Shown here: one piece after another, positions 1,258 through 29,839 of the stretch | Layout: the number at the start of each line of letters is the position of its first letter | Numbering within the stretch: position 1 is the first letter of the stretch | Source of the DNA: Escherichia phage SP15 | Sequence record: AP019559 | Direction: 5' to 3' (one strand) | Length of the DNA: 64,000 bases | Position numbers and translations under genes: made by a program | Notes under the pieces: model-generated | The model's input: the letters and a program-made list of their open reading frames with translations, nothing else | What the model was told of the DNA's origin: nothing | Databases searched by the model: none

Positions 1258-1266
1258 ATAATTCAT

Positions 1267-1789: not shown

Positions 1790-1865
1790 TGGACGACCGC
1801 ATGAGATTTGAACTCACATAAAAAGGATTTGCAATCCTTCGCCTAAGCCCTTCAGCCAACGGTCG
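1790..1865 (-). tRNA. tRNA-Cys (anticodon GCA)
   Basis: Acceptor CGACCGU/GCGGUCG, anticodon stem AAGGA/UCCUU, loop UUGCAAA, T-arm GUGAG-UUCAAAU-CUCAU, CCA. Confidence 0.65.
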
Positions 1866-1934
1866 GTTTATCTTGTTCTGTCATGTTGCTTCTCCAGTTC
1901 AATTTATGTAATTATTATACAGAACTTTTGGAAA

Positions 1935-2207: not shown

Positions 2208-2224
2208 CAGCAGCTCCTTCAATT

Positions 2225-2299
2225 TGGTGCACCCTGTTCGTATCGAACGAACCTCTCAAGCTCTTCAGGCAAGCGCTAATCCATCTCAGCTAAAGGTGC
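2225..2299 (-). tRNA. tRNA-like element, possible pseudo-tRNA (anticodon arm does not fold)
   Basis: Good 7-bp acceptor GCACCUU/AGGGUGC, T-arm GUUCG-UUCGAUA-CGAAC and CCA, D-stem GCUG/UAGC, but no 5-bp anticodon stem found. Confidence 0.35.
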
Positions 2300-2305
2300 A
2301 AATTT

Positions 2306-2382
2306 TGGCAAACCTACTAGGACTCGAACCTAGACCGTACGGTTTTGGAGACCGACATGCTGTCCAGTAACACTCTAGGAAT
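2306..2382 (-). tRNA. tRNA-Trp candidate (anticodon CCA), acceptor stem with two U-U mismatches
   Basis: Anticodon stem UCGGU/ACCGU, loop CUCCAAA, T-arm CUAGG-UUCGAGU-CCUAG, CCA; acceptor AUUCCUA/UAGGUUU imperfect. Confidence 0.5.
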
Positions 2383-2390
2383 GCAGAAAT

Positions 2391-2467
2391 TGGCGTCCTG
2401 TGCGGGGATCGAACCCGCAAATCCTACCTTGAAAGGGTAGTGACTTTACCAGTTTGTCTAACAGGAC
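2391..2467 (-). tRNA. tRNA-Glu (anticodon UUC)
   Basis: Acceptor GUCCUGU/ACAGGAC, anticodon stem CUACC/GGUAG, loop CUUUCAA, T-arm GCGGG-UUCGAUC-CCCGC, CCA. Confidence 0.7.
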
Positions 2468-2474
2468 TTAAATT

Positions 2475-2565
2475 TGGTGTTGGATGATGGAGTCGAACCA
2501 CCCGAGACCCTTCCGAGTCGGCAGATTTACAGTCTGCTTCGCTACCTCTACGATACTAATCCAAC
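2475..2565 (-). tRNA. tRNA-Tyr (anticodon GUA), type II with long variable arm
   Basis: Acceptor GUUGGAU/AUCCAAC, anticodon stem GCAGA/UCUGC, loop CUGUAAA, long variable arm, T-arm GGUGG-UUCGACU-CCAUC, CCA. Confidence 0.7.
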
Positions 2566-2695
2566 ATATTTAGAAGTATTCAAAAATTCTCATTTAAACA
2601 CTTTTAAATATGTTTTCAAATTAGGTAACTATTATACCAAGTTTTAAGGCACTGAGCAAGTCAAATTTTAAAGAACTTGCTCAGTGCTATATTAG

Positions 2696-2971
2696 TTAGT
2701 CGAACTTAGGAGTGACAGTTAAGGAGAACGGAAGTTCGAAAACTTCTTCACCCTCATTACTAACGGTAACTACACGACCTTTAAGTTCAGACATTAAAAT
2801 ATCAATATCAGCTTTTGCATCTGGAGCCATACCAGCTTCAACACATTTAGCTTTAACTTCCGGCAGAAGTTCGACATCGTAGAAATAAAGCCATTCAATC
2901 TCACCTTCCCAGCCTTCCCAGGATTTACAGATTGCACTTTCAATACCAGTTGCTACAACACGATTTTGCAT
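2696..2971 (-). CDS. hypothetical protein
   Basis: 91-aa ORF, GGAG RBS. Confidence 0.5.
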   Translation of the reverse strand: MQNRVVATGIESAICKSWEGWEGEIEWLYFYDVELLPEVKAKCVEAGMAPDAKADIDILMSELKGRVVTVSNEGEEVFELPFSLTVTPKFD

Positions 2972-3061
2972 TCGTTAACTCCTTCATCAATTTATACAAC
3001 TATTATATCAGAAATTTAAAGCAAAAGGCAAGTACATTTTTAAAAATTCTGTTTGGAGGAG

Positions 3062-3268
3062 CTAAACTCCAGATTCTTCAGCTAAGTCTAGGCTAATAAG
3101 AGTTATAGCCATAATTGCTGCACCGTGTTCTTTTTCTCCGGTGTTTTTAGCAGAGTCTATAATAGTCTTAATCTGTTCGTAATAGCCTTTTACTTCTTGT
3201 TCAATACCTGCCTCGGCTATCATGCCTTTAGTCATGATTCGTTGCATAGTAATTTCACGGTTAGCCAT
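3062..3268 (-). CDS. hypothetical protein
   Basis: 68-aa ORF, GGAGA RBS, start overlaps stop of upstream small ORF (TAATG-type coupling). Confidence 0.45.
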   Translation of the reverse strand: MANREITMQRIMTKGMIAEAGIEQEVKGYYEQIKTIIDSAKNTGEKEHGAAIMAITLISLDLAEESGV

Positions 3269-3428
3269 GATGTTTCTCCAGCTTCATTTTTAATAGTTTA
3301 CAAATGAAATCAACGTCTTCATCTGTACCTAGATCTCTATCTTCAAGAGTTGCCTTGAAGTTTTTAGTCAATTCCATGAGGATAACTTCTCTAGAACGAC
3401 GTGTTGGCGGAGGTGGATGTCTATACAT
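3261..3428 (-). CDS. small hypothetical protein (55 aa, Pro-rich N-terminus)
   Basis: Not in ORF track (below 60 aa); AAGGAA RBS 5 nt before ATG; translationally coupled to 3062..3268. Confidence 0.3.
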   Translation of the reverse strand: MYRHPPPPTRRSREVILMELTKNFKATLEDRDLGTDEDVDFICKLLKMKLEKHHG

Positions 3429-3443
3429 CTTATTTCCTTAGTT

Positions 3444-3520
3444 TGGTAGGGGTGGTGGGATTCGAACCCACAAAACCTGAATTTTAAGTCCAGTACCTAT
3501 GCCAATTCGATTACACCCCC
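3444..3520 (-). tRNA. tRNA with anticodon UAA (Leu-type anticodon but short variable loop)
   Basis: Acceptor GGGGGUG/CACCCCU, anticodon stem CUGGA/UUCAG, loop CUUAAAA, T-arm GUGGG-UUCGAAU-CCCAC, CCA; D-stem weak. Confidence 0.55.
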
Positions 3521-3527
3521 GTGTAGT

Positions 3528-3716
3528 TTAGTCAATTACTTTTGAGGCTTCAAGGTAGTCGATATAGTGTATGTTTTCTACCGTAATCATATAATCTGTC
3601 ACTTTATCCATAGCTTGGGCTTCAGAGGTAGCTCTGGCTAACCTATATCCTTTTTTATATTCATCCGGGTATTCTCTATCTTGGATAAACACAACATAAA
3701 CTATATATAGATCCAT
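3528..3716 (-). CDS. hypothetical protein
   Basis: 62-aa ORF. Confidence 0.4.
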   Translation of the reverse strand: MDLYIVYVVFIQDREYPDEYKKGYRLARATSEAQAMDKVTDYMITVENIHYIDYLEASKVID

Positions 3717-3725
3717 TTGTGACCT

Positions 3726-3803
3726 CTATTTAATTTGGTGGCTCCCCGAGGATTCGAACCTACGTACCTTCCGGTTATGAGCCGGGTGCTCATACCATAT
3801 GAG
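3726..3803 (-). tRNA. tRNA with anticodon CAU (Met/Ile type), weak T-stem
   Basis: Acceptor GGUUCUC/GGGAGCC, D-arm GCUC-AUAUGGUAU-GAGC, anticodon loop CUCAUAA, T-loop UUCGAAU but T-stem only 3 clean bp, CCA. Confidence 0.5.
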
Positions 3804-3809
3804 CTTGAG

Positions 3810-3898
3810 AACCAGAATTTGGCGGAAGAAGCGGGAATCGAACCCACAAGGCTATATTTCAAACCGACAGATTAGCAATCTGCTGCAATACCGTTATG
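3810..3898 (-). tRNA. tRNA-Ser (anticodon GCU), type II
   Basis: Acceptor GGAAGAA/UUCUUCC, anticodon stem GCAGA/UCUGU, loop UUGCUAA, long variable arm, T-loop UUCGAUU, CCA. Confidence 0.7.
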
Positions 3899-3929
3899 CT
3901 ATTCTTCCGAATTTATAAGATATATTATA

Positions 3930-4448
3930 TTAGAAATTTAGCTTCATAGCAAGAAAATTTTTCAAGTTTTCGGTAGACATCTCATCCACATCTACGGGAG
4001 AAACAAAGCCGTTTAATTTTCTAGCAAATTTTTCACCCGCAGGATCATTATCTCCGACAGCTACCAATTTAAAAGGTAGTAATTTCAGTTGCTTTAATAA
4101 CGCTTTTCCTGGAGAAGAACCCAACATTGCTAGGGCTGGATAACCAGCATTATGTAACGCAACTGCCTTAAATACAGATTCAGCAATCAATACTACTTTT
4201 TCATCTCCATTGAGAGTTTCTAGTCCCCATACACACTGGGTAGTAGAATAAGTAAAGTATTTAGCTTCAAAGGGGCACTTACCATGACCTTTTGGAGCAG
4301 AAGGATTATAAGTTTGATAGCCCCTCAACATCCCAGAGAAGTCATACAACGGGACTGTTAGCCATCCTTCCGGACTTAACCAGCAATGATATTTATCTGT
4401 ATCAAATCCTCTAGATAAGAGGTGCTGTGTTAGCTCATCAACATTCAT
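3930..4448 (-). CDS. stand-alone Toprim-domain protein (DnaG-like catalytic core)
   Basis: Motifs VVLIAESVFKAVALHNAGYPALAMLG and VAVGDNDPAGEKFARKL resemble the DnaG Toprim E...DxD core; start moved to ATG at 4448 (AGAGGA RBS), track extension reads through the promoter. Confidence 0.5.
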   Translation of the reverse strand: MNVDELTQHLLSRGFDTDKYHCWLSPEGWLTVPLYDFSGMLRGYQTYNPSAPKGHGKCPFEAKYFTYSTTQCVWGLETLNGDEKVVLIAESVFKAVALHNAGYPALAMLGSSPGKALLKQLKLLPFKLVAVGDNDPAGEKFARKLNGFVSPVDVDEMSTENLKNFLAMKLNF

Positions 4449-4623
4449 ATTTGGTTCCTCTTTCAAATTTATAGATATATTATACAGAGAATTTAGCATT
4501 CAAGCAATCAAATTTTTTAACTTTTTAGAGGAAAATCATAGGGCACTTAAGGATAGCAGATAAGTGGTGAGGACCAAAATTTGTGACCCCACTAAAAATT
4601 CAGGGGCAATTTTTAAAGACCCC

Positions 4624-4653
4624 TTGACATTTTCGCTGGGGTAGTGTAAAGTA
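4624..4653 (+). promoter_or_regulatory. sigma70-type promoter for the low-complexity cassette
   Basis: TTGACA (4624-4629), 17-nt spacer, TAAAGT; about 60 nt upstream of ATG 4714. Confidence 0.5.
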
Positions 4654-4713
4654 TATGTTATGGATGAGTGATCAAAGAGACACACATTTTCTATATACTA
4701 GGAGGTGTCAAAA

Positions 4714-5697
4714 ATGACAGAAGAAGTAGCTAAGAGTCCTGAGACCGTCGCTAGCGTTGCAGCAGAACTGCACCGTCACGAGGAATCAGATAAGAAAAAG
4801 TGGGAGAAGGTCAGAGCCTACGAAGAAAAACATCGTGAACACGATGATGAAGAAGATGACGATGAACATTGTCATAAATATGGAAAACATAAAATGCAAG
4901 AACCAGTAAACGTATTTACTAGTGGCTTCCCTGGCCTACTGGGTGGTTACCCAGCAAACGCAGGTGCTTTCGGTGGTGAAGGTATGGGACTATTCGGAGC
5001 TATCCTAATCGGTGCTCTATTAACAGGCGGATTCGGTGGTTTCGGTGGATTCGGTGGACGTGGTGTAGTTGGTGATGGTACCGCAGTTGATGCAGTACTT
5101 CAGAACCAAGATACCGCTAGTATTCTAGCAGCTATTAACACTACTCGTACAGAAGCTAACCAGGGTACTGGAGCTGTTTTAAGCGCAGTTAACAATGGGT
5201 TTAGCCAGACATCCCAAAACCAGAGCCGTGATACTCAGTCTGTACTAACTACGATCTATGGTACAGGTGCTAATCTGTCTAATCAGATCTGTCAGGAAAC
5301 TCGCAACGTTATTCAGGGTCAGTTCGATCTTTCTCGCCAGATTGATCAATCTTTCGCAGCTAATCAGATAGCTCGTGCACAAGATAAGTTTGATTCTGCA
5401 CAGATCGCTTTCCAGCAGACTTTACAAACTAATAACCAGTTTGCCGCTGTTCAGGCTCAGATGTGTGCTAACCAGAACTCTCTGGAACGTCAGATCGCTG
5501 AATGTTGCTGTGAACTTCAGACTGCTATCGCTGGTGTAACTACTGCTCGTATTCAGGATGAGTTAGATGCATGTCGCCTACGTGAAGCAATCGCTGCGGG
5601 TAACGGTGCTAACGGTCAGGTAATTAATCAAATCGCTGTAAGTCTTGGTGCTATCACTCAGACTCTGGCTGGTCTGCAGGCTAAACTGCCGGCTTAA
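4714..5697 (+). CDS. low-complexity membrane protein: His/acidic N-terminus, Gly-zipper TM segment, Q/N/S/T-rich C-terminal domain with CCC motif
   Basis: AGGAGG RBS 9 nt before ATG 4714; TM GLFGAILIGALLTGGFGGFGGFGG; codon usage rich in CGT/GGT/GCT/CTG. Confidence 0.6.
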   Translation: MTEEVAKSPETVASVAAELHRHEESDKKKWEKVRAYEEKHREHDDEEDDDEHCHKYGKHKMQEPVNVFTSGFPGLLGGYPANAGAFGGEGMGLFGAILIGALLTGGFGGFGGFGGRGVVGDGTAVDAVLQNQDTASILAAINTTRTEANQGTGAVLSAVNNGFSQTSQNQSRDTQSVLTTIYGTGANLSNQICQETRNVIQGQFDLSRQIDQSFAANQIARAQDKFDSAQIAFQQTLQTNNQFAAVQAQMCANQNSLERQIAECCCELQTAIAGVTTARIQDELDACRLREAIAAGNGANGQVINQIAVSLGAITQTLAGLQAKLPA

Positions 5698-5718
5698 TAT
5701 TAAGGGGAGGAGCCCATT

Positions 5719-6135
5719 ATGAGTAAATATGGTTTTGTAAATAACGGACTTAATCAAAGTATGGGCTCCCAGCAGCCCATTCCGGGTCTGGATAACCCCT
5801 ACTTACAACAATTGCAACAGCGTTTAGCAGAAGCGCAACAGATGCAACAACAACTCCAGCAAAACCCTGGAAGTGTGAGTCCTATGCAAATGATGCAGCA
5901 AATGAGCGGGCAGTCGCAAATGCCTCAACAAATGCAGCAACAGATGCCGCAGCAGCAAGTTCAGCAGCAAACCCAACAACCGCAGGTTTCTGCGGAAGGA
6001 CAGGCAGTACTAGCCCTTTTCGAAGACTTCACAAAGACAGAGGATGGGAAGCAGCTTGTATCACTTATGGGTAAGTTTAATAGCTTCTGCCAAAGCCAAG
6101 TTGCAAAAGCTCAAAATGGTGGTAATAACTCCTAA
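5719..6135 (+). CDS. Q-rich protein
   Basis: 138-aa ORF, RBS AGGGGAGGAG, about 30 percent Gln in central region. Confidence 0.55.
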   Translation: MSKYGFVNNGLNQSMGSQQPIPGLDNPYLQQLQQRLAEAQQMQQQLQQNPGSVSPMQMMQQMSGQSQMPQQMQQQMPQQQVQQQTQQPQVSAEGQAVLALFEDFTKTEDGKQLVSLMGKFNSFCQSQVAKAQNGGNNS

Positions 6136-6144
6136 GGAGAAATT

Positions 6145-6339
6145 ATGTGTTGCAGAAAACCTGTTTCGTGCTGCCCAATGCCTGTAGCACGTTGTTGCTC
6201 TCCAGCAATGTTTACACAAATACCGGCGTTCAATCCCTTTGCCTTTAAGCCTACTCTTATCCTGCCCCCTAGAGTAGATTTTCAGTCAAGATTGGCCTCC
6301 CGTATGGGTGGTTGCTGTACACCGAGAGTGTGGTTCTGA
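6145..6339 (+). CDS. Cys-rich small protein (paired CC motifs)
   Basis: 64-aa ORF, RBS TAAGGAGA, four CC pairs; followed by hairpin terminator. Confidence 0.5.
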   Translation: MCCRKPVSCCPMPVARCCSPAMFTQIPAFNPFAFKPTLILPPRVDFQSRLASRMGGCCTPRVWF

Positions 6340-6354
6340 AGAACCAAACAATAA

Positions 6355-6386
6355 AGCCCCTAGTCGAAAGACTTAGGGGCTTTTCT
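6355..6386 (+). terminator. rho-independent terminator after the low-complexity cassette
   Basis: Hairpin AGCCCCTAG...CTAGGGGCT followed by TTTTCTG. Confidence 0.65.
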
Positions 6387-6399
6387 GTATTTAAGATAA

Positions 6400-6436
6400 A
6401 AGAAAAGCCCTGCGCTCTCCAGGGAACGCAGGGCTT
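6400..6436 (-). terminator. rho-independent terminator after SPFH gene
   Basis: Hairpin GCCCTGCG...CGCAGGGC with U-run on minus strand. Confidence 0.6.
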
Positions 6437-6459
6437 ACTTCAGATGTTACATGCGGATA

Positions 6460-7407
6460 TTATTTATTACGCATATCCATGATCATTTGACCATCGTAGC
6501 CAGTACCTACCACAGTCTGTGGTACACCACCTTGATATTTCTGAGCACGAATCATTTCGACTTCCAGTTGTTTCCAACGAATCATCTCAGGAGTAATGGT
6601 ACGTTGCAGTGCGGCGTTAGCTTCAGCTTCTTTCTTAGCTGCGTACAGTTTAGCATCTGCGTCACGTTCATTAGCGATAGCTTGGTTGTTGCGAGCTTCA
6701 CGATCTGCTTCTGCTTGTTTAACTTTTTGCTGTGCTTCCTGTTCAACACGAGCTAATTCAGCTTTAGCAGCATTAACCTGTTCTTCACGAACTTTGGTAT
6801 TCTGTACCTGTTCCATGATTACCGGTGGCAAAGTAATATCCTGAAGGAATACCTGCTTAACTGTGTAACCATATGGGCGTGCATACTCTTCAACTTCCTG
6901 TTGAATTGCAGTTTGCAATTGAGCCTGAATTTTAGCATCAAACAAATCTTGTGCTTTAGGTACAGACTTACCAAACTCACGAATAGTAGACAGTAATTTT
7001 TCAGTTACATATTTGTCTAACGCTTGATCCTGAGTACCTGCGTTAATACGGTTAATTGGTGCCTTAGAACCATCAAACTGCAACATAACAGTCAGGTCAA
7101 CAGTGGATTTAAACTTATCCTGGCTAGGAACCTGAAGTTTATCTAATTTTACAGCAATATCTTTTGTACTAAAAGTGTCGAAAGATGCAAATGGGTTTAC
7201 AAGATGGAAACCTGGTAATACTGGGTTAGGATCTACTTTACCCAGAAATGTTTGGGTTTTAACCGTACCATCAGAAACAATAGTATATGAATTAAAGGCT
7301 AGAATCAAGCCTGCTAAACCAACTACAGCACCAATACCCCAACGTTTAATAGTACGAATTACTTTCTGCTCAGAAGTCAGTTCTTTCATATTTTTAGTAT
7401 TAAACAT
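6460..7407 (-). CDS. SPFH/band-7 (prohibitin/HflC-like) membrane protein
   Basis: N-terminal TM helix IGAVVGLAGLILAF, then band-7-like domain and Ala/Glu/Gln-rich coiled-coil typical of the SPFH family. Confidence 0.6.
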   Translation of the reverse strand: MFNTKNMKELTSEQKVIRTIKRWGIGAVVGLAGLILAFNSYTIVSDGTVKTQTFLGKVDPNPVLPGFHLVNPFASFDTFSTKDIAVKLDKLQVPSQDKFKSTVDLTVMLQFDGSKAPINRINAGTQDQALDKYVTEKLLSTIREFGKSVPKAQDLFDAKIQAQLQTAIQQEVEEYARPYGYTVKQVFLQDITLPPVIMEQVQNTKVREEQVNAAKAELARVEQEAQQKVKQAEADREARNNQAIANERDADAKLYAAKKEAEANAALQRTITPEMIRWKQLEVEMIRAQKYQGGVPQTVVGTGYDGQMIMDMRNK

Positions 7408-7440
7408 ATATTTCCTTTGTTTTAGTTACAGTTAATAAAA

Positions 7441-7515
7441 TTGGCCGAGGTGACAGGATTCGAACCTGCATAAAGGAATTTAGAAGACTCCTGCCTCTCC
7501 CTTAGACTACACCCC
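7441..7515 (-). tRNA. tRNA-Arg (anticodon UCU)
   Basis: Acceptor CGGGGUG/CACCUCG, anticodon stem GGAGU/AUUCC, loop CUUCUAA, T-arm GCAGG-UUCGAAU-CCUGU, CCA. Confidence 0.7.
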
Positions 7516-8029
7516 GTTTAAATATTTTTAAGAACTCTCGTAAAAACTCTTAAAAATACAGACGATACCGGGAGAGTCATAAGTCTCACTCATTAAGTAT
7601 TTCAAGACAAAATACAGTAACGTCTATTATTTTCCAGTTTAAGTCAGGGTGACTTAGTGGTTAGGTCCTGCGGTATATTGAGGACTCGGTTAGGCTTGGG
7701 GTCATGACTTCCCGCCTTTTGCTGCTACTCAACAGGAGTTATCGCGAATTACCTGTGCTATTGTGCACCATTAGTGACATCTCTCATGTCAGCATTTCCC
7801 ACTTTGTGGATAGCTTGAAAAACTACTCCGATATGGAGAAAAAACTTCACTATCCTAGAATACCTTCTAAAGTTCTTCTTTAGCCTGGACATAGTTAAAT
7901 CGTAATAAAACTATTCAGCAGACTGGTTGGTTAGCCTGGAACCAACTACCGCGTGGTTTAGGCAGTGCGCAACTAACCTCGGAAGCTTTTACGTTAAAAG
8001 CATCAGTTATCCAGTTCTTACCGACCGTA

Positions 8030-20705: not shown

Positions 20706-22580
20706 ATGAATCGCAATGAAGAACTGAAGTATAAAGAAATGCAGGCGTTAATTAGAAACTGCAAAGAGATTATCGAAGGGTCAGCAGATGAAGAGCTGCT
20801 GTTTAATAATGCCAATAAACCCTCAGAACGTTTCCCTACACAAAGGGATATGCTTGCAGGTGAGTTGAGTAAGTATCTAATTCTAGAAGAAATGCCAATT
20901 CAGATTCGAAATGCTCATATGATTGGGGATATTCATTTCCATGATGCTGATTATGCTGCATTAGGCATGACTAACTGTTGCCTGGTAGCTCTGGAAGATA
21001 TGTTGAAGAATGGTATGAAGGTTGGTAATGCTGAAATTAGCACTCCAAACTCTATCACTACTGCGGCGGCTATCACTGCTCAGATTATCACTCAAGTTAG
21101 CTCCCATCAGTATGGCGGTACTTCTGTAGATCGCCTTGATGAAGTATTAGCCCCTTATGTTCGTAAATCCTATGACAAAAATCATGCGTTTGCAAAACGT
21201 TGGACTAAGGATGAAGCCAAAGCATCCGTAATGGCTACGGAGATGACTGAAAAAGAAGTCTATGATGCTTGTCAGGGTCTAGAGTATGAAATCAATACGA
21301 TGTTCAACTCTAATGGTCAGAGTCCGTTTATTACCTTTGGCTTTGGTCTGGGAACTTCTTGGGAGGCACGTCTAGTACAGAAAGCAATACTGAAAGTACG
21401 TATGGATGGTTTAGGTATCAATAAACGTACAGCTATCTTCCCGAAACTGGTATTTGTGCTTCGTGATGGCGTAAATATGAAACCAGGAGATGTTAATTAT
21501 GACATCAAGAAGTTAGCTATGAAATGTACTGCTGAACGTATGTATCCAGATTATATCAGCTATGACAAAGTTGTAGAAGTTACTGGAGACTACAAAGTTT
21601 CTATGGGCTGCCGTTCATTCCTAGCTGCTACAGAAGATGGTGAAACTGCCGGTCGTAATAACTTAGGTGTTGTTTCTGTAAACTTGCCTAGAATTGCTAT
21701 CGAAGCTGAAGGAAATATTGACCTATTCTTTGATTTGCTTGAGCTACGTGTGGATACAGCGTTAAAAGCATTGGAGTGGAGAGTTGATCGCTTAAAATAC
21801 ATTCAAGCTAAAGCTGCGCCCATCCTCTATATGTCAGGAGCCTTTGGACTGCGCTTGGAGCCTGATGAATATGTATTCGATCATTTCTATAACCGTGCTT
21901 CTGTATCTCTAGGGTATATTGGTTGCCATGAAATGCTACAGTTCATGTTTGGCAAAGATGTAGACACAATGTCCGAGACCTGCATCAAGTTTGTTCAGCG
22001 TGTATTGCAGTACATGCGGGATAGAGTAGATCAGAAGAAGGAAGAAACTAAGTTAGGTTATAGCCTGTATGCTACACCATCAGAGTCCCTGTGTGACCGT
22101 TTTTGTCGTCTAGACCGTGAATATTTCCCGGAGCATGAAGATATTCTGTCCAAAGGATACTACACTAACTCTCACCACCTTGATGTGGAACGTAAAGTTG
22201 CTCCTAACGTCAAATTTGATTATGAGTCTAACTTTACTCCTATTGCTTCTGGTGGGTGCATCTCCTATGTAGAATTACCGGATATGAAACGATTCCCAGA
22301 TGCACTGGAATGGGTTATTAATTATGCTGCTAGTAAGGTTCATTACTTCGGTATTAATACTCCAGTGGATTCTTGTGGTAAATGTGGATTCTTAGGTGAA
22401 ACAATAGCATCCGAAGATGGATTTAAGTGCCCTATCTGTGGTAATCATGACCCCGAAACTCTTGAAGTAACTCGCCGAGTTTGTGGGTATCTTGGAAATC
22501 CAGGTGCTCGTCCATTTAACCCCGGCAAACAGCACGAGGTGATGGGTAGAGTTAAGCATCAGGATATTCGAGCTAAGTAA
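20706..22580 (+). CDS. nrdD: anaerobic ribonucleoside-triphosphate reductase
   Basis: 624 aa; C-terminal Zn-ribbon CGKCGF...CPICG and glycyl-radical motif RVCGYLG. Confidence 0.85.
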   Translation: MNRNEELKYKEMQALIRNCKEIIEGSADEELLFNNANKPSERFPTQRDMLAGELSKYLILEEMPIQIRNAHMIGDIHFHDADYAALGMTNCCLVALEDMLKNGMKVGNAEISTPNSITTAAAITAQIITQVSSHQYGGTSVDRLDEVLAPYVRKSYDKNHAFAKRWTKDEAKASVMATEMTEKEVYDACQGLEYEINTMFNSNGQSPFITFGFGLGTSWEARLVQKAILKVRMDGLGINKRTAIFPKLVFVLRDGVNMKPGDVNYDIKKLAMKCTAERMYPDYISYDKVVEVTGDYKVSMGCRSFLAATEDGETAGRNNLGVVSVNLPRIAIEAEGNIDLFFDLLELRVDTALKALEWRVDRLKYIQAKAAPILYMSGAFGLRLEPDEYVFDHFYNRASVSLGYIGCHEMLQFMFGKDVDTMSETCIKFVQRVLQYMRDRVDQKKEETKLGYSLYATPSESLCDRFCRLDREYFPEHEDILSKGYYTNSHHLDVERKVAPNVKFDYESNFTPIASGGCISYVELPDMKRFPDALEWVINYAASKVHYFGINTPVDSCGKCGFLGETIASEDGFKCPICGNHDPETLEVTRRVCGYLGNPGARPFNPGKQHEVMGRVKHQDIRAK

Positions 22581-22587: not shown

Positions 22588-22620
22588 AGCCGGGTTGCTA
22601 GTCGACCTGGCTTTTATTTT
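22588..22620 (+). terminator. rho-independent terminator after nrdD
   Basis: 7-bp stem AGCCGGG/CCTGGCT then TTTATTTT. Confidence 0.6.
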
Positions 22621-23060: not shown

Positions 23061-23259
23061 GAATGTAAAACATCTTAAATATCGCTTAATTTATAACGGA
23101 CGTATGGAAACAGAAGATCTGGCCCAGTTAGCTATTAATTCTAATGAGGTTACAGTGCGTGCGCTGGCAATTGAAAAGTTGCGTGCCTCTTATGAAAATC
23201 GTGTTATGGAACTAGAGGAGAAACTTTATGGCATTCTCGAAGCCGATGCTACCAGATAA
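23053..23259 (+). CDS. hypothetical protein
   Basis: ATG 23053 after GGAG; overlaps previous gene. Confidence 0.4.
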   Translation: MTKNVKHLKYRLIYNGRMETEDLAQLAINSNEVTVRALAIEKLRASYENRVMELEEKLYGILEADATR

Positions 23260-23449
23260 GGGTTTAAACGCCGCTTTGGAAAACGCATTAATGCAGCACT
23301 GGGAAACTGGCTATAAGGATGGTGTTGAATCCTGCGCTACTATGCTAGAAGTTATTGCTAATACCTTAATGGAGAAAGGCAATAAAGAATTAGCTGAGCT
23401 ATTAGACAGTATTGGGCAAAACTTCAGAGAACAGGTGAAAAATGCGTAG
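23228..23449 (+). CDS. hypothetical protein
   Basis: 73-aa ORF, GAGGAG RBS. Confidence 0.45.
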   Translation: MAFSKPMLPDKGLNAALENALMQHWETGYKDGVESCATMLEVIANTLMEKGNKELAELLDSIGQNFREQVKNA

Positions 23450-24260
23450 ATTAATTATTATTAGCGGTGCAGGTTTGAGTGTTGAAAGTGGTGTACGAGC
23501 TTTTCGTACTGATACTGCTAGTGGTAAAGCATTGTGGGATGATTATGATCTAGAAGAAGTATGTAATATTCATGCCTTTCGTGGTAATTTTTATCATAAA
23601 ACCCATATGTTTTACAACAAGCGTCGTGAAGAGCTAAAAACTGTTGAACCTAATCTTGCTCATTTGCGTATTGGTGAGTGGTATAAACAATATCCAGGTC
23701 AAGTAGTAAACTTGACTACCAACGTTGATGACCTTATTGAGCGTGCTGGCGTTCCACATAGTGACATTCTGCACATTCATGGGTACTTAAAAGAGGTTGT
23801 TGTGGCTGATAGTCACAATAGTAGTAATAAACGAGTTATTGATGTAGGATACAATTCTATTGATCCAGATGACTATAAATGGGTTAAACCTAATGTAATC
23901 TTCTTTGGGGAGCATGCTCCAGCATATGCAGAAATGTACAATATTTTTGATGGTATTACCAATCAAGATATGATCATTGTGGTTGGTTGCTCTAACCAAG
24001 TAATTAACTTCTACTGGGAATTATTTCCTATTCTTAACCGTACTGCTGCCAAGCTAATGGTAGTTAACTACTATGATAGTGCCCTAGCGGCAGAACCAGG
24101 CTATCAAGGTATGACTCGTAGTGAGATGTACCAGCTGGAAGAACGCGGTATCCCTTACTGGAGTAAAGGGGCTGTAGATGCCTTCAGTGATCCTGATTTT
24201 ATTGCTCGTGTAGAAGCTCATCTAGAGGGTAGACCTTATGTGTCAGGAAGTAAGAAATAA
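23442..24260 (+). CDS. Sir2-family NAD-binding protein lacking the zinc-ribbon module
   Basis: Motifs GAGLSVESGVRAFR, TTNVDDL, HIHGYL, VVGCSNQV; no CxxC...CxxC pair. Confidence 0.65.
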   Translation: MRRLIIISGAGLSVESGVRAFRTDTASGKALWDDYDLEEVCNIHAFRGNFYHKTHMFYNKRREELKTVEPNLAHLRIGEWYKQYPGQVVNLTTNVDDLIERAGVPHSDILHIHGYLKEVVVADSHNSSNKRVIDVGYNSIDPDDYKWVKPNVIFFGEHAPAYAEMYNIFDGITNQDMIIVVGCSNQVINFYWELFPILNRTAAKLMVVNYYDSALAAEPGYQGMTRSEMYQLEERGIPYWSKGAVDAFSDPDFIARVEAHLEGRPYVSGSKK

Positions 24261-24423
24261 TGAATGGGATATTTTCATAACTGAGTCTGGTACTTGGTGC
24301 TATAGATTTGCCTATAGGTTTCCTAGTGTAAGAAAACGGCTGGGGTACACATATAAAATTATCTACACTACAGATAATATATGGTTGTCCTCTGGAGATG
24401 AGGGGAAACAGATATGTCCATAG
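24238..24423 (+). CDS. small hypothetical protein (WCYR motif), paralog 1
   Basis: 61 aa; shares DIF..x..G.WCYR motif with the next ORF. Confidence 0.4.
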   Translation: MCQEVRNNEWDIFITESGTWCYRFAYRFPSVRKRLGYTYKIIYTTDNIWLSSGDEGKQICP

Positions 24424-24596
24424 TTAAATCTGTGTATACACATCCCGATGATATATTTGTATGGGCGGATGGTAGTTGGTGCTATCGATGTGAGCTATGG
24501 GAAATGGACTATAAATCTGATGACTATGGTGTCATATATGTTGATACGGTTGAGTATGATACGTTCTTAGAAAGGGACAAAAATGGAAATAAGTAA
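24414..24596 (+). CDS. small hypothetical protein (WCYR motif), paralog 2
   Basis: 60 aa, GAGGGGAAAC RBS. Confidence 0.45.
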   Translation: MSIVKSVYTHPDDIFVWADGSWCYRCELWEMDYKSDDYGVIYVDTVEYDTFLERDKNGNK

Positions 24597-25089
24597 TACT
24601 CCAATTATTTTTCTAGACATTGATGGGGTGCTTAATTCGAGCATCTCCCACCATCATGCACCTGATGATGAAAAGATTTTCTTTGGAAGTGACTGGGTTT
24701 TTAAGCCACTTCTCAAGGCTTTTCAGGACTTTATTCGTCCTTCTCCAATAATGATTGTTGGGGTATCTTCATGGTTCTCTGTCAGGAATGAGATGGAGAA
24801 CGTTCAGATTATGACCGGATTAGATCTTATCGATCGTTTTCTTGGTACAACGGATTTTACTGGTGGTGGGCTATCTAGGGGTAATTCTGTTCTTCGCTTC
24901 GTTGAAAAGCATAAGCTCAAACATTGGTGTGTGCTGGATGACGCTGGTGCTATGATGTATCAGTATCCAACTGTTATAGTCAATGGTAGAATTGGAATAA
25001 ATCTTCAAGATTTAAGAGCTGTTAGCTATATGTTAGAATTTAGTCCAGATCTTGAAATGTGTAAAGCCCTACAACAATTTAAGGTGTAA
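24583..25089 (+). CDS. HAD-superfamily phosphatase (possible deoxynucleotide 5'-monophosphatase)
   Basis: N-terminal IIFLDIDGVLN (HAD motif I) and downstream Asp-rich motif. Confidence 0.55.
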   Translation: MEISNTPIIFLDIDGVLNSSISHHHAPDDEKIFFGSDWVFKPLLKAFQDFIRPSPIMIVGVSSWFSVRNEMENVQIMTGLDLIDRFLGTTDFTGGGLSRGNSVLRFVEKHKLKHWCVLDDAGAMMYQYPTVIVNGRIGINLQDLRAVSYMLEFSPDLEMCKALQQFKV

Positions 25090-25091
25090 AT

Positions 25092-25520
25092 ATGTTCAAT
25101 AATGTGTTCTCTAAAGAAGCTAACCCAATATTAGTTAATTTTTGGCGTACTCTTCCAGCCAACCTGTACAATGAGGCTATTAATGCTCTGAAAATATGGT
25201 GTGAGAATAATGAAATCTCCTTTGCTTTTAAAGGCGAGGTTGAAGAGGCTCCCTGTATTGGTTTAATTGTGCAGGTGGAGGATGGTCTTGAAGAGATTGT
25301 CGGCTGGAAAGAGTTGGATGAAATGGGCTTGGTTTTTGCGTTAAACTATAAGCTGTTTATGCCCAATAAACACCGTATTGTTGTTAACTATAAAACCAAT
25401 GAATCTCCTGGTTTTCAAGTTAATGAACGGTATGGTTGGTCTTACTCACCGGAAGAGGTAAATGATGGTATCCAGAAACTTCGTCGTTTTGGTTATCAAA
25501 TTCCGGGTTTAACTGCCTAA
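25092..25520 (+). CDS. hypothetical protein, paralog A
   Basis: 142 aa; shares PCIG...W.EL...GL..ALN..LF.P...IPGL pattern with 25530..25922. Confidence 0.5.
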   Translation: MFNNVFSKEANPILVNFWRTLPANLYNEAINALKIWCENNEISFAFKGEVEEAPCIGLIVQVEDGLEEIVGWKELDEMGLVFALNYKLFMPNKHRIVVNYKTNESPGFQVNERYGWSYSPEEVNDGIQKLRRFGYQIPGLTA

Positions 25521-25529
25521 GGAGGCACA

Positions 25530-25922
25530 ATGGAACAAGTATATTGGCGTCAGATCGACCCTAGTTTGGTGAAGCGTGCAGAGAAGCTGCTACAACGTTG
25601 GTTGGGGGTAAGACAAGCCTCCTTCACTTTTCCGGAGCAGCAAATAGACGATCCCTGTATTGGTGTTTTCCTATCAGGCTACGCTAGGGAATGGGAATTG
25701 GATTGGAATGAATTGTCTGCTATGGGTTTAATTGTTGCACTAAATTTCTCTTTGTTCCATCCACGTGGTTTGGCCATATGTCGTGTGCCTGAGGACGGTT
25801 GTTCGCCCCATCTTTTACAGGTGGAAGATGATATTTGGGAGTACACTCCAGATATTCTCAAAGAAGCCAAAGAACAATTAAACCGTGTTGGAATTTATAT
25901 TCCAGGCCTGAATGATGAATGA
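25530..25922 (+). CDS. hypothetical protein, paralog B
   Basis: 130 aa, AGGAGG RBS. Confidence 0.5.
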   Translation: MEQVYWRQIDPSLVKRAEKLLQRWLGVRQASFTFPEQQIDDPCIGVFLSGYAREWELDWNELSAMGLIVALNFSLFHPRGLAICRVPEDGCSPHLLQVEDDIWEYTPDILKEAKEQLNRVGIYIPGLNDE

Positions 25923-26061
25923 TTTTTATTGGTTGACCTCTATAATCCGGGCTATTAGTGCTCGGATTATTGCCTAATCTTTCCAGCTAATTGACAGCAT
26001 GAATAAATTGTCATTGACAAATTGAATAGATTATGTAATAATATGTGTATTGGAGGTAAAG

Positions 26062-26514
26062 ATGTCGCTCACACAACAAGAACTTTTAGATAATTTCCGA
26101 TATGAAGATGGAAAATTATTTAGAACCACAGGAAGAAATGCAGGCAAGGAATGTTGTGTTTCAACGGGAAATGGGTATTATCGTATTTCTCTAGGTAGTA
26201 AAACTATGCTCCGACACAGAGCCATCTTCTTAATGCATCATGGTTATCTCCCTGATTTAGTAGATCATGAGAATACTATAAAAGGTGATGATCGTATTGA
26301 AAATCTTAGAGAGCAGACAGTATCCGGTAATCTAAGAAATATCAAATATAAGAAAGGAATGCATGTTTACCCTTCTGGTAGTAAGAACTGGCAAGTAGTA
26401 TTTACTATTAACCGTAAACGTATAGTTAAAGGAACATATGACAACTATGAGGTTGCATGTTCTATGGCCAAGATGTTTAGAGGTCAATTATACGGTAGGG
26501 AATCAATCCAGTAA
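26062..26514 (+). CDS. HNH homing endonuclease (HNH_3 plus AP2-like domain)
   Basis: HRAIFLMHHGYLPDLVDHENTIKGDDRIENLRE; GGAGG RBS before ATG 26062. Confidence 0.65.
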   Translation: MSLTQQELLDNFRYEDGKLFRTTGRNAGKECCVSTGNGYYRISLGSKTMLRHRAIFLMHHGYLPDLVDHENTIKGDDRIENLREQTVSGNLRNIKYKKGMHVYPSGSKNWQVVFTINRKRIVKGTYDNYEVACSMAKMFRGQLYGRESIQ

Positions 26515-27049
26515 AATTTCATTTGCAAGGGAGTATTATTTTATAGTATAATATTCCCATAAATGAGAGATATTAGTAAAAATTGATTTTGCTAATTTTT
26601 CTTGTTTACAATCCGCGATACGGAACAGTTAGGCTGCCCCATTAAGGGTTGTTTTAACTGTTACGTGTTAGTTTTTAAGCAAATAATTAATAGAATACTT
26701 AGCGATCTGCGTCCCGTAGGAACCCTGGTAAGGCCTCGAAGCAACCTAGATAGAGGTGGTTGTGAAGTGAGACGGGAGGAGTGAAAAACTCCGAGACGTG
26801 ATTCTGTAAGTTATATTGCATCTAGTATGAGCTAGTATATGAAGCATTAGGTGAGCAAATCTGGCTTAGCGGCCATCCTCAAGGATTTGTGCGGTATAGC
26901 AAAGCAGCAGCGCAGCGTGAAAGTGGAAGTTGCCACCCCACTTCAGTATTTGCGATTAATTTGTTGAGAAATTGACAGTAACAGTTGTTCTATTCTTTCT
27001 GAATAGTCCTAAAGAAAACTTATTTCATTTCCAACACAGGAGTATTGTT

Positions 27050-29839
27050 GTGTTTTCAATCCTACAAGGTCATGCAGGATTTCATCGCGATTTAGCCACA
27101 GGCAATTGGCGAGAAGTTAAGGCAGAAGATTATCTTTTTGCTAAAAGATTTTCCTCAAAGCATCCCGAAGGTAAACCAGCTTCAATGCCCTTCAAGTTTG
27201 ATGTAATTGATGAAGTTGATCCTCAAACCCTAGTAGAAATGCTTCCTCTTATGAGACGTTTAACGTCTGACCCTCATATCGTTGCGGTACGAGGTCGATG
27301 TCTTGCACCTAAAAATAATGTGCGACGTAAGAAGGGCAACTTTAATGTATCTAATCCAAGTCATATAATCGCAATGGATGTGGATGGTATTGTAGATACA
27401 GGAGGTTGTAACAAGTTTGATCTTGTTGGCATGGCGCGTCATATTATTAGGATGTTGAATAGTATTAGTGAGGATATGTTTCCTCTTGATGCAGGGTTTA
27501 TTGCTCATGCATCATCTTCGGCTGGCCTAAAACCAGGTATCCGAATGCACTTAATACTAGAATCTAATGTTAAAGTTACACAGGGTCAGATCAAGTTCTT
27601 ATTTACATCTATCAACGAAAGTAGTAGACAAAAGTATGGCTTTGATATTGCCGACTTAGCTTATTACTCTTCCGTACAGCTCCACTATTTTGCAGATCCT
27701 TTATTTACTGATGGTATAGTTGATCCGTTTAAAGCGGAGGGTGCTTCACGTCTGGTATTTGTTAAAGGCTCAAAAGTAAATTTACCTAATAATCTAGTTG
27801 ACTATGAAACAACTAGAGGAGAGTTTAAAGAGGAATTCTACTCTTTACTCGATCAAATTAAAGGTAAAAAAGCCGCCTCCGATAAAGTAGAGGAAACTAT
27901 CAGCGAACTAGAAGAAGCTGAGGATGGAGTGTATCTACGTATTATTCCTAAACTCTATCACAGGGCTTTAGAGGATGGTGTTGATTTTGCATGGCTAGAA
28001 AAAGAAATCCGCCCAGCCTTATCAGAGTATATTGCAACTAAAGATAATAGTCGTAATATTCAAGATTATTTTAACAACGGTAGAAAACAGGCTCTGAAAG
28101 CGTTTGTTAATAATTCTAAACGTGATATACCGGATGTTTTAAAAGGTATTCCACTTAAAAAGCTAGAAACTAACTCTCTAGAGACTGATAACTTCTTGAA
28201 ATTAAATACTGTACCACCAGAAGGTTATATGACTTTTGTAAAAGCAAGTCTAGGTACAGGTAAAACTACGGCGGTTGTGCGTTGGTTAGATTCAGGAGTT
28301 ATTAAGGGTAATTTCTTAGCAATTACCAATACTCGAGCACTGGTATCTTCAAATGCTAAGAAATTTAGTGCAGGACAATATGATAAGTCTGTAGATATGC
28401 TTAATTTTAAGCGTGGCGCTATTGACCGTATGTCCACAACTATACATTCTTTGCATAAGTTCAAGAGTTTTATTGGTCAAATCGATGCAATCTTTATCGA
28501 TGAATGTGACGCTGTAATGAATGACCTATTATTCGCCCCGGTTGTTAAACAACGTCGTGAATGTATTCAGGTTCTTCGGGATATTCTTGCAACTGCAAAA
28601 ATCATTATATTATCTGATGGTGATATTAGTGCTGAAACAATTGAAGCATATGGTTCTTTGATTGAGTTTGATAAACCGGTTGCATTTTATAATCATCACC
28701 GTAAGATGCTGTCAAAAGCTCATGCTTATGAGTTCCCTGATGAATCTAGTATTTGGGTTGCACTTCAGACCTCTCTAGAGATGGGTGAGAAATCTATTCT
28801 GGTATCTGATTGTGGGCCGGATGAGCTGAATGAGAAAGGTATGGCACTGCGTCGTAATACGGGTGCGTTAGTTAAGGAAATCCATTCAAACTCTACCTCA
28901 GATGTGGATATTAGACGTATTCTGGATTACACAACTAATGAACTAATTGATCAACAAATTGATTGTTTATTATGTAGTCCATCCGTAACGAGTGGTGTTG
29001 ACTTTAACTATTTTGATAACGTATTTGTTATTACTAGAACTAGTAATCAAGCGCCAAACATGCGTTTCCAAGCAATCAGGCGCGACCGTGGTGCTCAGAA
29101 TATCTATTATTTTATTGATAAATCCACTAGTGGATTCTCCGCAGGTTCTGAACAATATAATATTGATGAGGGTTGGCTGGAGTTAGCACAGCAATTATAC
29201 GCACGTCGCAGGGAGCTGGAATCTAGGAACTATACTAGTACTTTACGTTATTACTTACTTGATCAGGGTGCAACTATTGATATTTTCAGTGAAAGCTGGG
29301 GAACTATTGAAGGTGCTGGTAAAGAGTATACAGAAGAGCGAATCAAAGCTATTCTGCACTCAACTCCTGATTATTGTGCTCCACGTCATGCGGATGCGTA
29401 TGAAGCTAAACTACTTCTTGTTCGCTATTATCATCTGGAGTCTATTAAAGATGTAACCGTTGAGCATGTTGAACAATATATCAAAGATAAGCCGAATGAT
29501 CGAGCTGCATTCTTCCATAAGATGCATGAGATGTTCTGGGAAGATATTAAGAAGTGTTCAAATGTCACTATCAAACCTTTCATAGAAGCTCTGAAAGGTA
29601 AGAAGAAAGATTTCTTCCTTAAAACAGGTCAGAGTGCTAACCCAAAATATGCTAGAATGTATCTTGGTATGATGGGTATTGGTAAAGATATGAACACGGA
29701 GAATATCGTAGACTGGTACAGAACCTATTGTAAAATCGAGTGTATGCCAATTCCTTTCAAATTCATGACAGAGGAAGAACGTCAGATGCACGAGGAAGCA
29801 ATGTCAGAGCTAGGTGCTAGAAATGACAGTGAAGAATAA
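27050..29839 (+). CDS. large P-loop NTPase, putative replication initiation/origin-binding helicase-like protein
   Basis: Walker A SLGTGKTTAV and Walker B IFIDECDAV; likely GTG start 27050 after AGGAG (track start 26972 is TTG inside a TTGACA box). Confidence 0.6.
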   Translation: MFSILQGHAGFHRDLATGNWREVKAEDYLFAKRFSSKHPEGKPASMPFKFDVIDEVDPQTLVEMLPLMRRLTSDPHIVAVRGRCLAPKNNVRRKKGNFNVSNPSHIIAMDVDGIVDTGGCNKFDLVGMARHIIRMLNSISEDMFPLDAGFIAHASSSAGLKPGIRMHLILESNVKVTQGQIKFLFTSINESSRQKYGFDIADLAYYSSVQLHYFADPLFTDGIVDPFKAEGASRLVFVKGSKVNLPNNLVDYETTRGEFKEEFYSLLDQIKGKKAASDKVEETISELEEAEDGVYLRIIPKLYHRALEDGVDFAWLEKEIRPALSEYIATKDNSRNIQDYFNNGRKQALKAFVNNSKRDIPDVLKGIPLKKLETNSLETDNFLKLNTVPPEGYMTFVKASLGTGKTTAVVRWLDSGVIKGNFLAITNTRALVSSNAKKFSAGQYDKSVDMLNFKRGAIDRMSTTIHSLHKFKSFIGQIDAIFIDECDAVMNDLLFAPVVKQRRECIQVLRDILATAKIIILSDGDISAETIEAYGSLIEFDKPVAFYNHHRKMLSKAHAYEFPDESSIWVALQTSLEMGEKSILVSDCGPDELNEKGMALRRNTGALVKEIHSNSTSDVDIRRILDYTTNELIDQQIDCLLCSPSVTSGVDFNYFDNVFVITRTSNQAPNMRFQAIRRDRGAQNIYYFIDKSTSGFSAGSEQYNIDEGWLELAQQLYARRRELESRNYTSTLRYYLLDQGATIDIFSESWGTIEGAGKEYTEERIKAILHSTPDYCAPRHADAYEAKLLLVRYYHLESIKDVTVEHVEQYIKDKPNDRAAFFHKMHEMFWEDIKKCSNVTIKPFIEALKGKKKDFFLKTGQSANPKYARMYLGMMGIGKDMNTENIVDWYRTYCKIECMPIPFKFMTEEERQMHEEAMSELGARNDSEE

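Follow-up and report, generated by a model that had tools for sequence, protein, structure and literature searches.

A short gene cluster of a T5-like phage contains two unrelated gene families, each of which was duplicated independently. The stretch of DNA analysed here (the window, 64,000 nt) comes from a T5-like phage (Tequintavirus), and its DNA is 93-96% identical to that of T5-like phages. The five plus-strand ORFs at 24238-25922, all present at the coordinates given in the original prediction, are orthologues of T5.103 to T5.107, genes that are already catalogued, though uncharacterised, and both duplications among them are real. They differ in history: that of the DUF7415 genes is ancient, asymmetric and fixed, and that of the two small genes is patchy and plastic. 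We propose that an early transcription unit ends here in an accessory tail, in which the DUF7415 proteins would act as a heteromeric adaptor, the small proteins as binders and the HAD protein as a phosphatase, an overall reading that we hold tentatively and to which we give somewhat less than an even chance. No function has been assigned to this early block, although T5 serves as a reference phage. The two possible leads, a DUF7415 heteromer tied to replication and nucleotide supply and, as an anti-defence candidate, a family of mini-proteins, would not overturn current understanding; they are of use in deciding which knockouts and pull-downs to do first in a model system as well developed as this.

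In phage T5 (AY543070), T5.103-T5.107 have the same order, sizes and overlaps as the window ORFs, the T5.103 and T5.104 proteins are 100% identical to their counterparts, and the annotation of all five goes no further than hypothetical or conserved hypothetical. T5 lacks the HNH endonuclease gene (26050-26514) that separates the T5.107 and T5.108 orthologues in the window. The order of features is the nrdD terminator, three small ORFs, the Sir2-like gene, the two small paralogues, the HAD gene and the two DUF7415 paralogues (Table 1). The Sir2-like gene is the first large gene of this tightly packed string; its stop is overlapped by 23 nt by the T5.103 orthologue, and the T5.104 orthologue overlaps both adjoining genes. 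The hairpin 3' of nrdD marks the upstream limit of the five-gene transcription unit, and a terminator and a promoter are annotated at the equivalent place in T5. The imperfect hairpin behind the last gene is the likely downstream limit; it went unflagged by a simple terminator scan but coincides with a putative terminator annotated in T5. All five genes were shown to be under purifying selection. Literature searches with the locus tags, the T5 Sir2-like gene and DUF7415 gave nothing relevant to T5.103-T5.107, and a PDB sequence search found no relatives of the small family, the DUF7415 family or the HAD protein.

Table 1 Features of the T5.102-T5.107 region in the window.
Feature	Coordinates	Strand	Evidence or remark
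Terminator-like hairpin 3' of nrdD	22588..22612	+	terminator scan
Sir2-like gene, 272 aa, T5.102 orthologue	23442..24260	+	Pfam SIR2, E 1e-25
Small paralogue 1, T5.103 orthologue, 61 aa, pI 7.7	24238..24423	+	100% protein identity
Small-gene duplication DNA remnant	24268..24310	+	72% identity to 24450-24492; DIF...WCYR block
Small paralogue 2, T5.104 orthologue, 60 aa, pI 4.3	24414..24596	+	canonical acidic member
HAD-superfamily phosphatase, T5.105 orthologue, 168 aa	24583..25089	+	Pfam HAD_SAK_2
DUF7415 paralogue A, T5.106 orthologue, 142 aa, upstream type	25092..25520	+	Pfam DUF7415
DUF7415 duplication DNA remnant	25244..25262	+	89% identity to 25646-25664; PCIG block
DUF7415 paralogue B, T5.107 orthologue, 130 aa, downstream type	25530..25922	+	Pfam DUF7415
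Imperfect hairpin just 3' of last DUF7415 gene	25944..25968	+	sequence reading and T5 annotation

The original prediction had described two tandem paralogue pairs around a HAD phosphatase, and it held for both pairs and for the HAD gene. The 142-aa and 130-aa proteins aligned by BLASTP over 124 residues (32% identity, E 7e-20); their Smith-Waterman score was 160, as compared with 28.2 ± 4.8 for shuffled sequences, none of 5000 shuffles equalling it, and the quoted pattern PCIG...W.EL..MGL..ALN..LF.P...IPGL was found in both. Both also matched phrog_2502 and the Pfam model DUF7415 (PF24187), with 110.9 bits for the 142-aa and 108.7 bits for the 130-aa protein, about four times the gathering threshold of 27. 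By sequence, the pair is thus clearly paralogous.

The two copies differ in the core signature W-x-x-L-S-x-x-G-L...N...L-H-P-x-G-L-A-x-x-R...G-x-S, which is found in at least 90% of distant members. With a core HMM built solely from distant single-domain members, residues 57-115 of the 130-aa protein scored 71 bits; this copy keeps the family signature as WNELSxMGLxxALNxxLFHPRGLAICRxPxxGxSP and carries the family consensus IDWNELSxxGLxxRINxEILHPLGLAxxRxPxTGxSxGxLVxxDGxWEY. The 142-aa protein scored 23 bits and lacks the core signature: it keeps W..L..MGL..ALN and has MPNKHRIVVN where the family has HPxGLAxxR (HPxGxAxxR). The conserved polar residues of the signature (N, HP, G, R, G-S, D, W-Y) are kept in the downstream copy and lost from the upstream one. 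Most members of the family are single-domain proteins of 70-100 aa, unlike the T5-like proteins, which have an extra N-terminal half. As to a possible internal repeat, each half of both proteins passes the Pfam model alone (50-65 bits), but the profiles that we built do not tie the N-terminal half to the core: the core-only HMM found no link, hhalign of N-half versus C-half gave a probability of 1.4%, and a predicted beta-alpha-beta-beta secondary-structure pattern is all that repeats.

In the DUF7415 tree, upstream-type and downstream-type copies formed separate clades, Klebsiella T5-like phages included, and the 142-aa copy grouped with the upstream copies of Eps7 and Roth49. As judged from these sequences, the duplication took place before the Klebsiella T5-like phages and Tequintavirus/Epseptimavirus separated. 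T5-like genomes have DUF7415 at two places per record, and in the genomes inspected the two genes were kept together or missing together, phage KKP_3711 carrying neither. This duplication is old and fixed, and the pair, with two copies per T5-like genome in separate clades, does not behave as a recent expansion. Values of dN/dS were 0.02-0.22 for the pair and 0.02-0.08 for the 142-aa copy; despite the lost signature, the upstream copy appears even more strongly constrained than the downstream one. The most likely arrangement would be a T5.106/T5.107 heteromer in which one subunit is competent and the other degenerate, an idea based on co-retention and asymmetric motif loss.

Outside T5-like phages, DUF7415 occurs in T4-like, P2-like and P4-like elements. 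The gene lies between nrdD and nrdG in Jiaodavirus, and in Aeromonas phage PX29 it comes after td, HAD, denA and rnlA; a Nudix hydrolase gene is near it in phage KP15, an RNA ligase gene is beside it in PX29 and near it in KP15, and a P4-like primase gene was also found nearby. Of 52 dereplicated viral loci, 9 have it next to the P2 gpA replication gene, and in others it stands beside Dam, ribonucleotide reductase or exonucleases. These neighbourhoods are mixed, replication and nucleotide genes dominating and many neighbours being unannotated. Fusions were found with PF04447 (dATP/dGTP pyrophosphohydrolase), thymidylate kinase and ASCH/DUF3850. Accessory or selfish genes are known to settle beside gpA and in the nrdD-nrdG interval. 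Because the domain is found in such settings in T4-, P2- and P4-like elements and is fused to nucleotide enzymes and ASCH, the DUF7415 heteromer may be a small binding or adaptor module in the phage replication and nucleotide-supply machinery.

The small pair behaved differently. Its proteins belong to a mini-protein family, PDDIxVWPDGxW...SDDY, which corresponds to phrog_5116 and is without a Pfam model. The 60-aa protein is a canonical acidic member, which carries PDDIFVWADGSW and SDDY and thus combines the profile match with both acidic motifs. The 61-aa protein is a divergent, near-neutral member in which these motifs read WDIFITESGTW and GYTY. The T5.103 type was found in 31 phage records versus 488 for the T5.104 type. 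The slot that the pair occupies is plastic: some phages have hybrid or decayed genes there and some an unrelated ORF instead, the minority forms including a 44-aa hybrid (P0176) and a frameshifted remnant (mar004NP2). We considered the possibility that phages with a single small gene carry a T5.103/T5.104 hybrid produced by unequal crossover; yet most carry a plain T5.104 gene. Variable copy number, hybrids and decay would suit a recent expansion of the small pair in part, but the DNA likeness between its copies is short and the duplication itself is old.

The T5.104-type family, whose proteins are acidic (pI 4.0-4.3), was also found in alphaproteobacterial integrative-element clusters. Its neighbours there include PF03230 (Antirestrict), ParB_N, a giant helicase (AAA_34/Helicase_C_4) and a primase (Toprim_3), and in one element the PF03230 antirestriction gene adjoins the T5.104-type gene. 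From this gene content we infer that the loci are leading or establishment regions, hallmark genes being absent from 2 of the 6 contexts examined. In the leading regions of conjugative elements, anti-defence genes are concentrated and many families are uncharacterised (PMC11541004). T5.104-type proteins are, like ArdA, ArdB/KlcA and Ocr, small, acidic and early, and occur in phages and integrative elements; the resemblance is limited to context and composition, and no characterised anti-defence protein (anti-CRISPR, antirestriction) proved similar to them in sequence or fold. T5.103 and T5.104 are predicted to be mini-proteins of about 60 residues with a beta-beta-alpha-beta-alpha arrangement. 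The acidic T5.104 type would most likely be made early and bind or inhibit a host protein, possibly a defence factor that targets nucleic acids, and T5.103 would be an optional paralogue of shifted charge whose target has probably changed. An establishment or anti-restriction family of the T5.104 type may be shared by T5-like and FelixO1-like phages and alphaproteobacterial integrative conjugative elements. The more specific combination, in which this is an unrecognised family of that kind, T5.103 has been retargeted and a T5.106/T5.107 heterodimer docks on the replication and dNTP machinery, we regard as doubtful.

Co-occurrence of the small family and DUF7415 was shown only in T5-like phages, and the small family was within 4 kb of none of 80 viral DUF7415 loci. 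The idea that the small proteins are a piece of the DUF7415 core, suggested by the likeness of DG.W.Y to DGSWCYR, was discarded, hhalign giving a probability of 24% over 17 columns. For neither family was a structural or functional homologue found.

Small early duplicates had been taken as typical of host-interaction or anti-defence loci. Extended to both pairs, as effectors of anti-defence or host takeover diversified by tandem duplication, this appears unlikely to us. In its favour, these are small, acidic, early genes, uncharacterised as yet, in a region whose gene content varies among T5-like phages; the small family stands beside antirestriction genes in integrative elements; and DUF7415 adjoins gpA in P2-like prophages and lies close to the integrase in P4-like satellites, where accessory cargo is often located. 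Yet the DUF7415 pair, ancient, retained and with low dN/dS, is unlike an arms-race expansion; its fusions are to nucleotide enzymes, without known anti-defence domains; and scans with NCBIfam and PADLOC returned nothing for any of the four paralogues. The anti-defence reading is plausible only for the small pair, whose patchy distribution, plastic slot and antirestriction context fit an accessory, host-facing role.

The HAD protein matched Pfam HAD_SAK_2 (PF18143) with E 5e-20 and 72.7 bits (cutoff 27.5) over profile positions 1-138 of 139. Its translation has an intact motif I (DxDxV, as D12-I-D14-G-V) and, further downstream, a VLDD motif (acidic motif IV); it is 91% identical to its Epseptimavirus orthologue, with dN/dS of 0.05-0.07. 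HAD_SAK_2 was reportedly defined in an RNA-repair paper by Burroughs and Aravind. The likeness to the HAD domain of the 'Swiss Army Knife' RNA-repair proteins consists in the full-length profile match and the intact DxDxV, and the difference is that the domain belongs there to multidomain repair proteins, whereas the protein here stands alone. In Aeromonas T4-like phages, homologues come after td within the frd-td-nrdA nucleotide cluster, and one is near the gp56 dCTPase gene in Proteus phage PM2, which points to nucleotides rather than RNA ends as substrates. Neither Klebsiella phage Roth49 nor Enterobacter phage KKP_3711 has the gene; because Roth49 has a small gene and both DUF7415 genes without it, the HAD gene is not the organising centre of the locus. 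We see in it a predicted intact phosphatase that neither pair would need, with nucleotides or nucleic-acid ends as the more likely substrate.

A single pathway formed by the five genes and Sir2, an RNA-repair or NAD-salvage module in which Sir2, HAD and the small proteins would work jointly on NAD-derived or RNA-end substrates, would account for the tight packing with overlapping start and stop codons from Sir2 to T5.107, the HAD match to a domain named for RNA-repair proteins, the RNA ligase genes close to DUF7415 in PX29 and KP15, and the finding of HAD and DUF7415 less than 2 kb apart in an unrelated phage family. We consider it highly unlikely, however, since the parts are separable: besides Roth49, KKP_3711 has a Sir2-sized and a T5.103-type gene without HAD or DUF7415, P0175 implies phages with Sir2 deleted, FelixO1-like phages and integrative elements have the small family but no Sir2, HAD or DUF7415 with it, and the small family is absent from the vicinity of the viral DUF7415 loci. 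Beyond T5-like phages, the parts are already largely unassociated.

The paralogy of the small pair was less apparent in pairwise alignment. The DIF...WCYR motifs are present as quoted, as DIFITESGTWCYR and DIFVWADGSWCYR. BLASTP aligned only 13 residues (E 2e-5 in a single comparison), but the Smith-Waterman score of 55 compared with 24.3 ± 4.7 for shuffles, and, as for the large pair, was equalled by none of 5000, so that the similarity is significant in both pairs. This was extended by hhalign of the T5.103-type against the T5.104-type profile (probability 95.9%, E 6e-9, 41 columns). Both proteins matched phrog_5116 (60-aa, E 2e-29; 61-aa, E 7e-24), though the match of the 61-aa protein may be by construction. 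The suggestion that the likeness is due to chance or to a convergent short motif draws on the W/C/Y-rich composition of the 13 aligned residues and on the failure of tblastn with the 60-aa protein to find the 61-aa ORF at database scale, but is extremely improbable and effectively refuted by the shuffles, the 41-column profile alignment, the adjacency and equal length of the genes, and the IY..TAEW downstream segment that the KKP_3711 T5.103-type protein has in common with T5.104-type proteins. Both pairs are true paralogues. Both duplications are old, because only short DNA remnants persist, 43 nt at 72% identity being all that is left in the small genes and 19 nt at 89% in the DUF7415 genes; for the small pair this is also indicated by the 40%-identical T5.103-type gene of KKP_3711. 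The dN/dS of the 61-aa gene, as compared with BB1, was 0.045.

The original prediction held that two tandem pairs of paralogs surround a HAD phosphatase gene, and that duplicated small early genes are typical of host-interaction or anti-defence loci. The paralogy was borne out and is statistically sound, pairwise alignment giving significant similarity in both pairs. The 142-aa and 130-aa proteins share 32% identity across 124 residues (BLASTP, E 7e-20), with an alignment score far beyond all of 5000 shuffles, and both match Pfam DUF7415 and phrog_2502. The similarity within the small pair was weaker by BLASTP (13 residues, E 2e-5); none of 5000 shuffles reached its score. When a T5.103-type profile, which took in a 40%-identical orthologue from Enterobacter phage KKP_3711, was compared by hhalign with a T5.104-type profile built from five diverse phages, 41 columns were aligned (probability 95.9%, E 6e-9). 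Both duplications are old; the DNA similarity left between copies amounts to one 43-nt block at 72% and one 19-nt block at 89%. Both paralogies are already implicit in the PHROGs and Pfam groupings, the genes are catalogued T5 orthologues, and the finding as a whole is ordinary.

Region 23400-27000 is matched by 447 phage records, best by Tequintavirus genomes (93-96% DNA identity). The five ORFs have one-to-one counterparts in phage T5 (T5.103, T5.104, T5.105, T5.106 and T5.107), which the T5 record labels as hypothetical or conserved hypothetical. They are protein-coding and under purifying selection, with dN/dS of 0.02-0.22 over the five genes in orthologue comparisons at unsaturated distances (61-aa ORF against BB1: 0.045, dS 0.61). 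No gap longer than 9 nt separates successive ORFs, some of which overlap, between the Sir2-like gene and the last DUF7415 gene; together they therefore probably form one early transcription unit. Unlike the window, T5 has no HNH endonuclease gene at the T5.107/T5.108 junction; a gene is present there in BB1 and in several Salmonella phages. That of the window, which has a near-consensus promoter of its own, was probably inserted as a homing endonuclease. The ORF at 26972-29839 was mechanically listed as 955 aa from a TTG start. Since its T5 orthologue, T5.108, has 928 aa, translation probably begins at an internal ATG some 27 codons further in.

Features around the two pairs and in the corresponding slot of related phages (L, other sequence records; P, metagenomic proteins)
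Feature	Coordinates	Position or remark
nrdD	20706-22580	upstream of the five ORFs
Terminator-like hairpin	22588-22612	3' of nrdD, upstream side
Three small ORFs and Sir2-like gene		between the 22588-22612 hairpin and the five ORFs
61-aa and 60-aa ORFs (+)	24238-24423, 24414-24596	small pair
HAD gene (+)	24583-25089	168 aa
142-aa and 130-aa ORFs (+)	25092-25520, 25530-25922	DUF7415 pair
Imperfect hairpin		downstream of the last DUF7415 gene, where T5 has an annotated terminator
Near-consensus promoter	26014-26042	downstream of the five ORFs
HNH endonuclease gene	26050-26514	between T5.107 and T5.108 orthologues; PF13392, phrog_99
Replication-origin-binding helicase gene		downstream side, beyond the HNH endonuclease gene
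Hydrophobic 61-aa ORF of Epseptimaviruses	L017 2665-2850, L016 2676-2861, L005 5206-5328
Slot deletion/fusion variants	P0175, P0176, L013 1480-1640

The second part of the prediction fared differently for the two pairs. A host-interaction or anti-defence role is plausible for the small pair, which is patchy, occupies a plastic slot and has relatives in integrative-element clusters, but less likely for the DUF7415 pair, which looks like a fixed, asymmetric duplicate associated with replication and nucleotide supply. Copy number likewise varied for the small pair (T5.103 type in 31 phage records, 25 of them full-length, versus 488 for the T5.104 type), whereas tblastn found DUF7415 at two places per Tequintavirus or Epseptimavirus record. 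Both DUF7415 copies are present in Klebsiella phage Roth49 and neither in KKP_3711.

When 1.84 billion representative proteins were searched with a profile covering the two DUF7415 paralogues, just 159 passed E <= 0.001. Most matches were restricted to profile positions about 60-115; what is conserved is thus a core of some 55 residues (IDWNELSxxGLxxRINxEILHPLGLAxxRxPxTGxSxGxLVxxDGxWEY), usually found as a stand-alone protein of 70-100 aa. An HMM of this core, built from distant members only, matched residues 57-115 of the 130-aa protein with 71 bits and the 142-aa protein with only 23 bits. In a neighbour-joining tree the upstream-type copies (T5.106, Eps7, Roth49) stood apart from T5.107 and its counterparts, which argues that the duplication predates the divergence of these T5-like genera. 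The HPxGxAxxR signature is lost in the upstream clade of T5-like phages, yet the upstream copy has the lowest dN/dS. Co-retention with asymmetric signature loss is the pattern that would be expected if the pair formed a heteromer of one competent and one degenerate subunit.

Elsewhere, 61 longer DUF7415 relatives included fusions to the dATP/dGTP pyrophosphohydrolase PF04447 (2 proteins), DUF3850/ASCH (2), thymidylate kinase (1) and, once each, PGDYG, DUF551 and a ClpX zinc finger. In Klebsiella Jiaodavirus phages a 77-aa stand-alone member overlaps both nrdD and nrdG (e.g. ValerieMcCarty02, L008 3980-4213). In KP15 a Nudix hydrolase gene precedes it at two genes' distance, and Aeromonas phage PX29 has the DUF7415 gene after rnlA, with a HAD-gene homologue that overlaps the end of td lying 1.8 kb upstream. 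Among 52 dereplicated IMG/VR loci, the commonest immediate neighbour was a P2-type replication gene A (9 loci), followed by Dam methylase (4), then ribonucleotide reductase subunits, exonucleases and helicases. Other contexts were a lambdoid-like early region (prophage) and a P4-like primase-integrase interval (satellite). With modest confidence, because these contexts are heterogeneous and some of the positions also collect accessory cargo, we take their common theme to be an early replication and nucleotide-supply module, such as that in which the T5 pair lies, between nrdD and the origin-binding helicase. The ValerieMcCarty02 protein is labelled 'MazG-like family protein', probably by annotation transfer from fusion proteins; GenBank records of T5-like orthologues variously carry the mistaken labels 'tail tube protein', 'exonuclease' and 'Sir2'.

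DUF7415 and the small family co-occur only in T5-like phages: the small family was found within 4 kb of none of 80 viral DUF7415 loci, and DUF7415 in none of the small family's integrative-element loci. The HAD gene is intact (DxDxV motif; PF18143, E 5e-20) and strongly conserved (91% identical to its Epseptimavirus orthologue). Because it is absent from Roth49 and KKP_3711 and has homologues within the frd-td-nrdA cluster of T4-like Aeromonas phages, we favour a nucleotide or nucleic-acid-end phosphatase that would have no mechanistic tie to either pair.

T5.104-type records include Klebsiella T5-like phages and FelixO1-like Erwinia and Salmonella phages, and many Tequintaviruses have T5.104 without T5.103. 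Epseptimaviruses combine T5.104 with an unrelated hydrophobic 61-aa ORF (MIKKIFKGIWKGLVWFVNLIG...), where T5 has the second small gene; its product is probably membrane-spanning, and the Eps7 record annotates it in truncated form. The slot after Sir2 is plastic: mar004NP2 has a frameshifted remnant there, one metagenomic protein (P0176) is a 44-aa T5.103/T5.104 hybrid, and in another (P0175) the 73-aa ORF upstream of Sir2 (window 23228-23449) is fused to the C-terminus of T5.104, with a short WE..YK microhomology at the junction; the latter fusion implies complete loss of the Sir2 gene in some T5-like phages. In KKP_3711, neither a convincing ORF nor any HAD or DUF7415 gene is present in the stretch of about 1.3 kb (L014 3677-4951) that separates the T5.103-type gene from the gene for the origin-binding helicase.

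A profile search with the small family gave 116 clusters that have PDDIxVWPDGxW and SDDY motifs in common; no Pfam domain was matched by any of them. The T5.104 type has an acidic pI (4.0-4.3) and the T5.103 type a near-neutral one (6.1-7.7). In four of the six bacterial contexts inspected, the other two being less informative, its surroundings are gene clusters of a kind typical of integrative or conjugative elements in alphaproteobacteria, with a ParB_N protein (about 700 aa), UCP036055, DUF7007 or DUF2958, DUF736, a giant AAA_34/Helicase_C_4 protein (about 1450 aa) and a DUF7146-Toprim_3 primase; one of the four also has a PF03230 antirestriction gene. In Mesorhizobium-type elements (L098 5001-9629, L106 6001-10648) some 100 nt separate the small-family gene from that of the giant protein downstream, after which comes the primase, and this three-gene order is conserved in these two unrelated contigs. 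Leading regions of conjugative elements concentrate anti-defence genes and many uncharacterised families (PMC11541004), and these loci may lie in such regions. This context is the only evidence bearing on the anti-defence idea and concerns the small pair alone, whose traits are those of accessory, host-facing genes and whose link to mobile-element establishment clusters is suggestive.

Finally, 11 tRNA genes (Pro, Asp, Asn, Cys, Phe, Trp, Glu, Tyr, Leu, Ser, Arg) are clustered on the minus strand at 72-7516 of the window, as expected for the T5 tRNA region.
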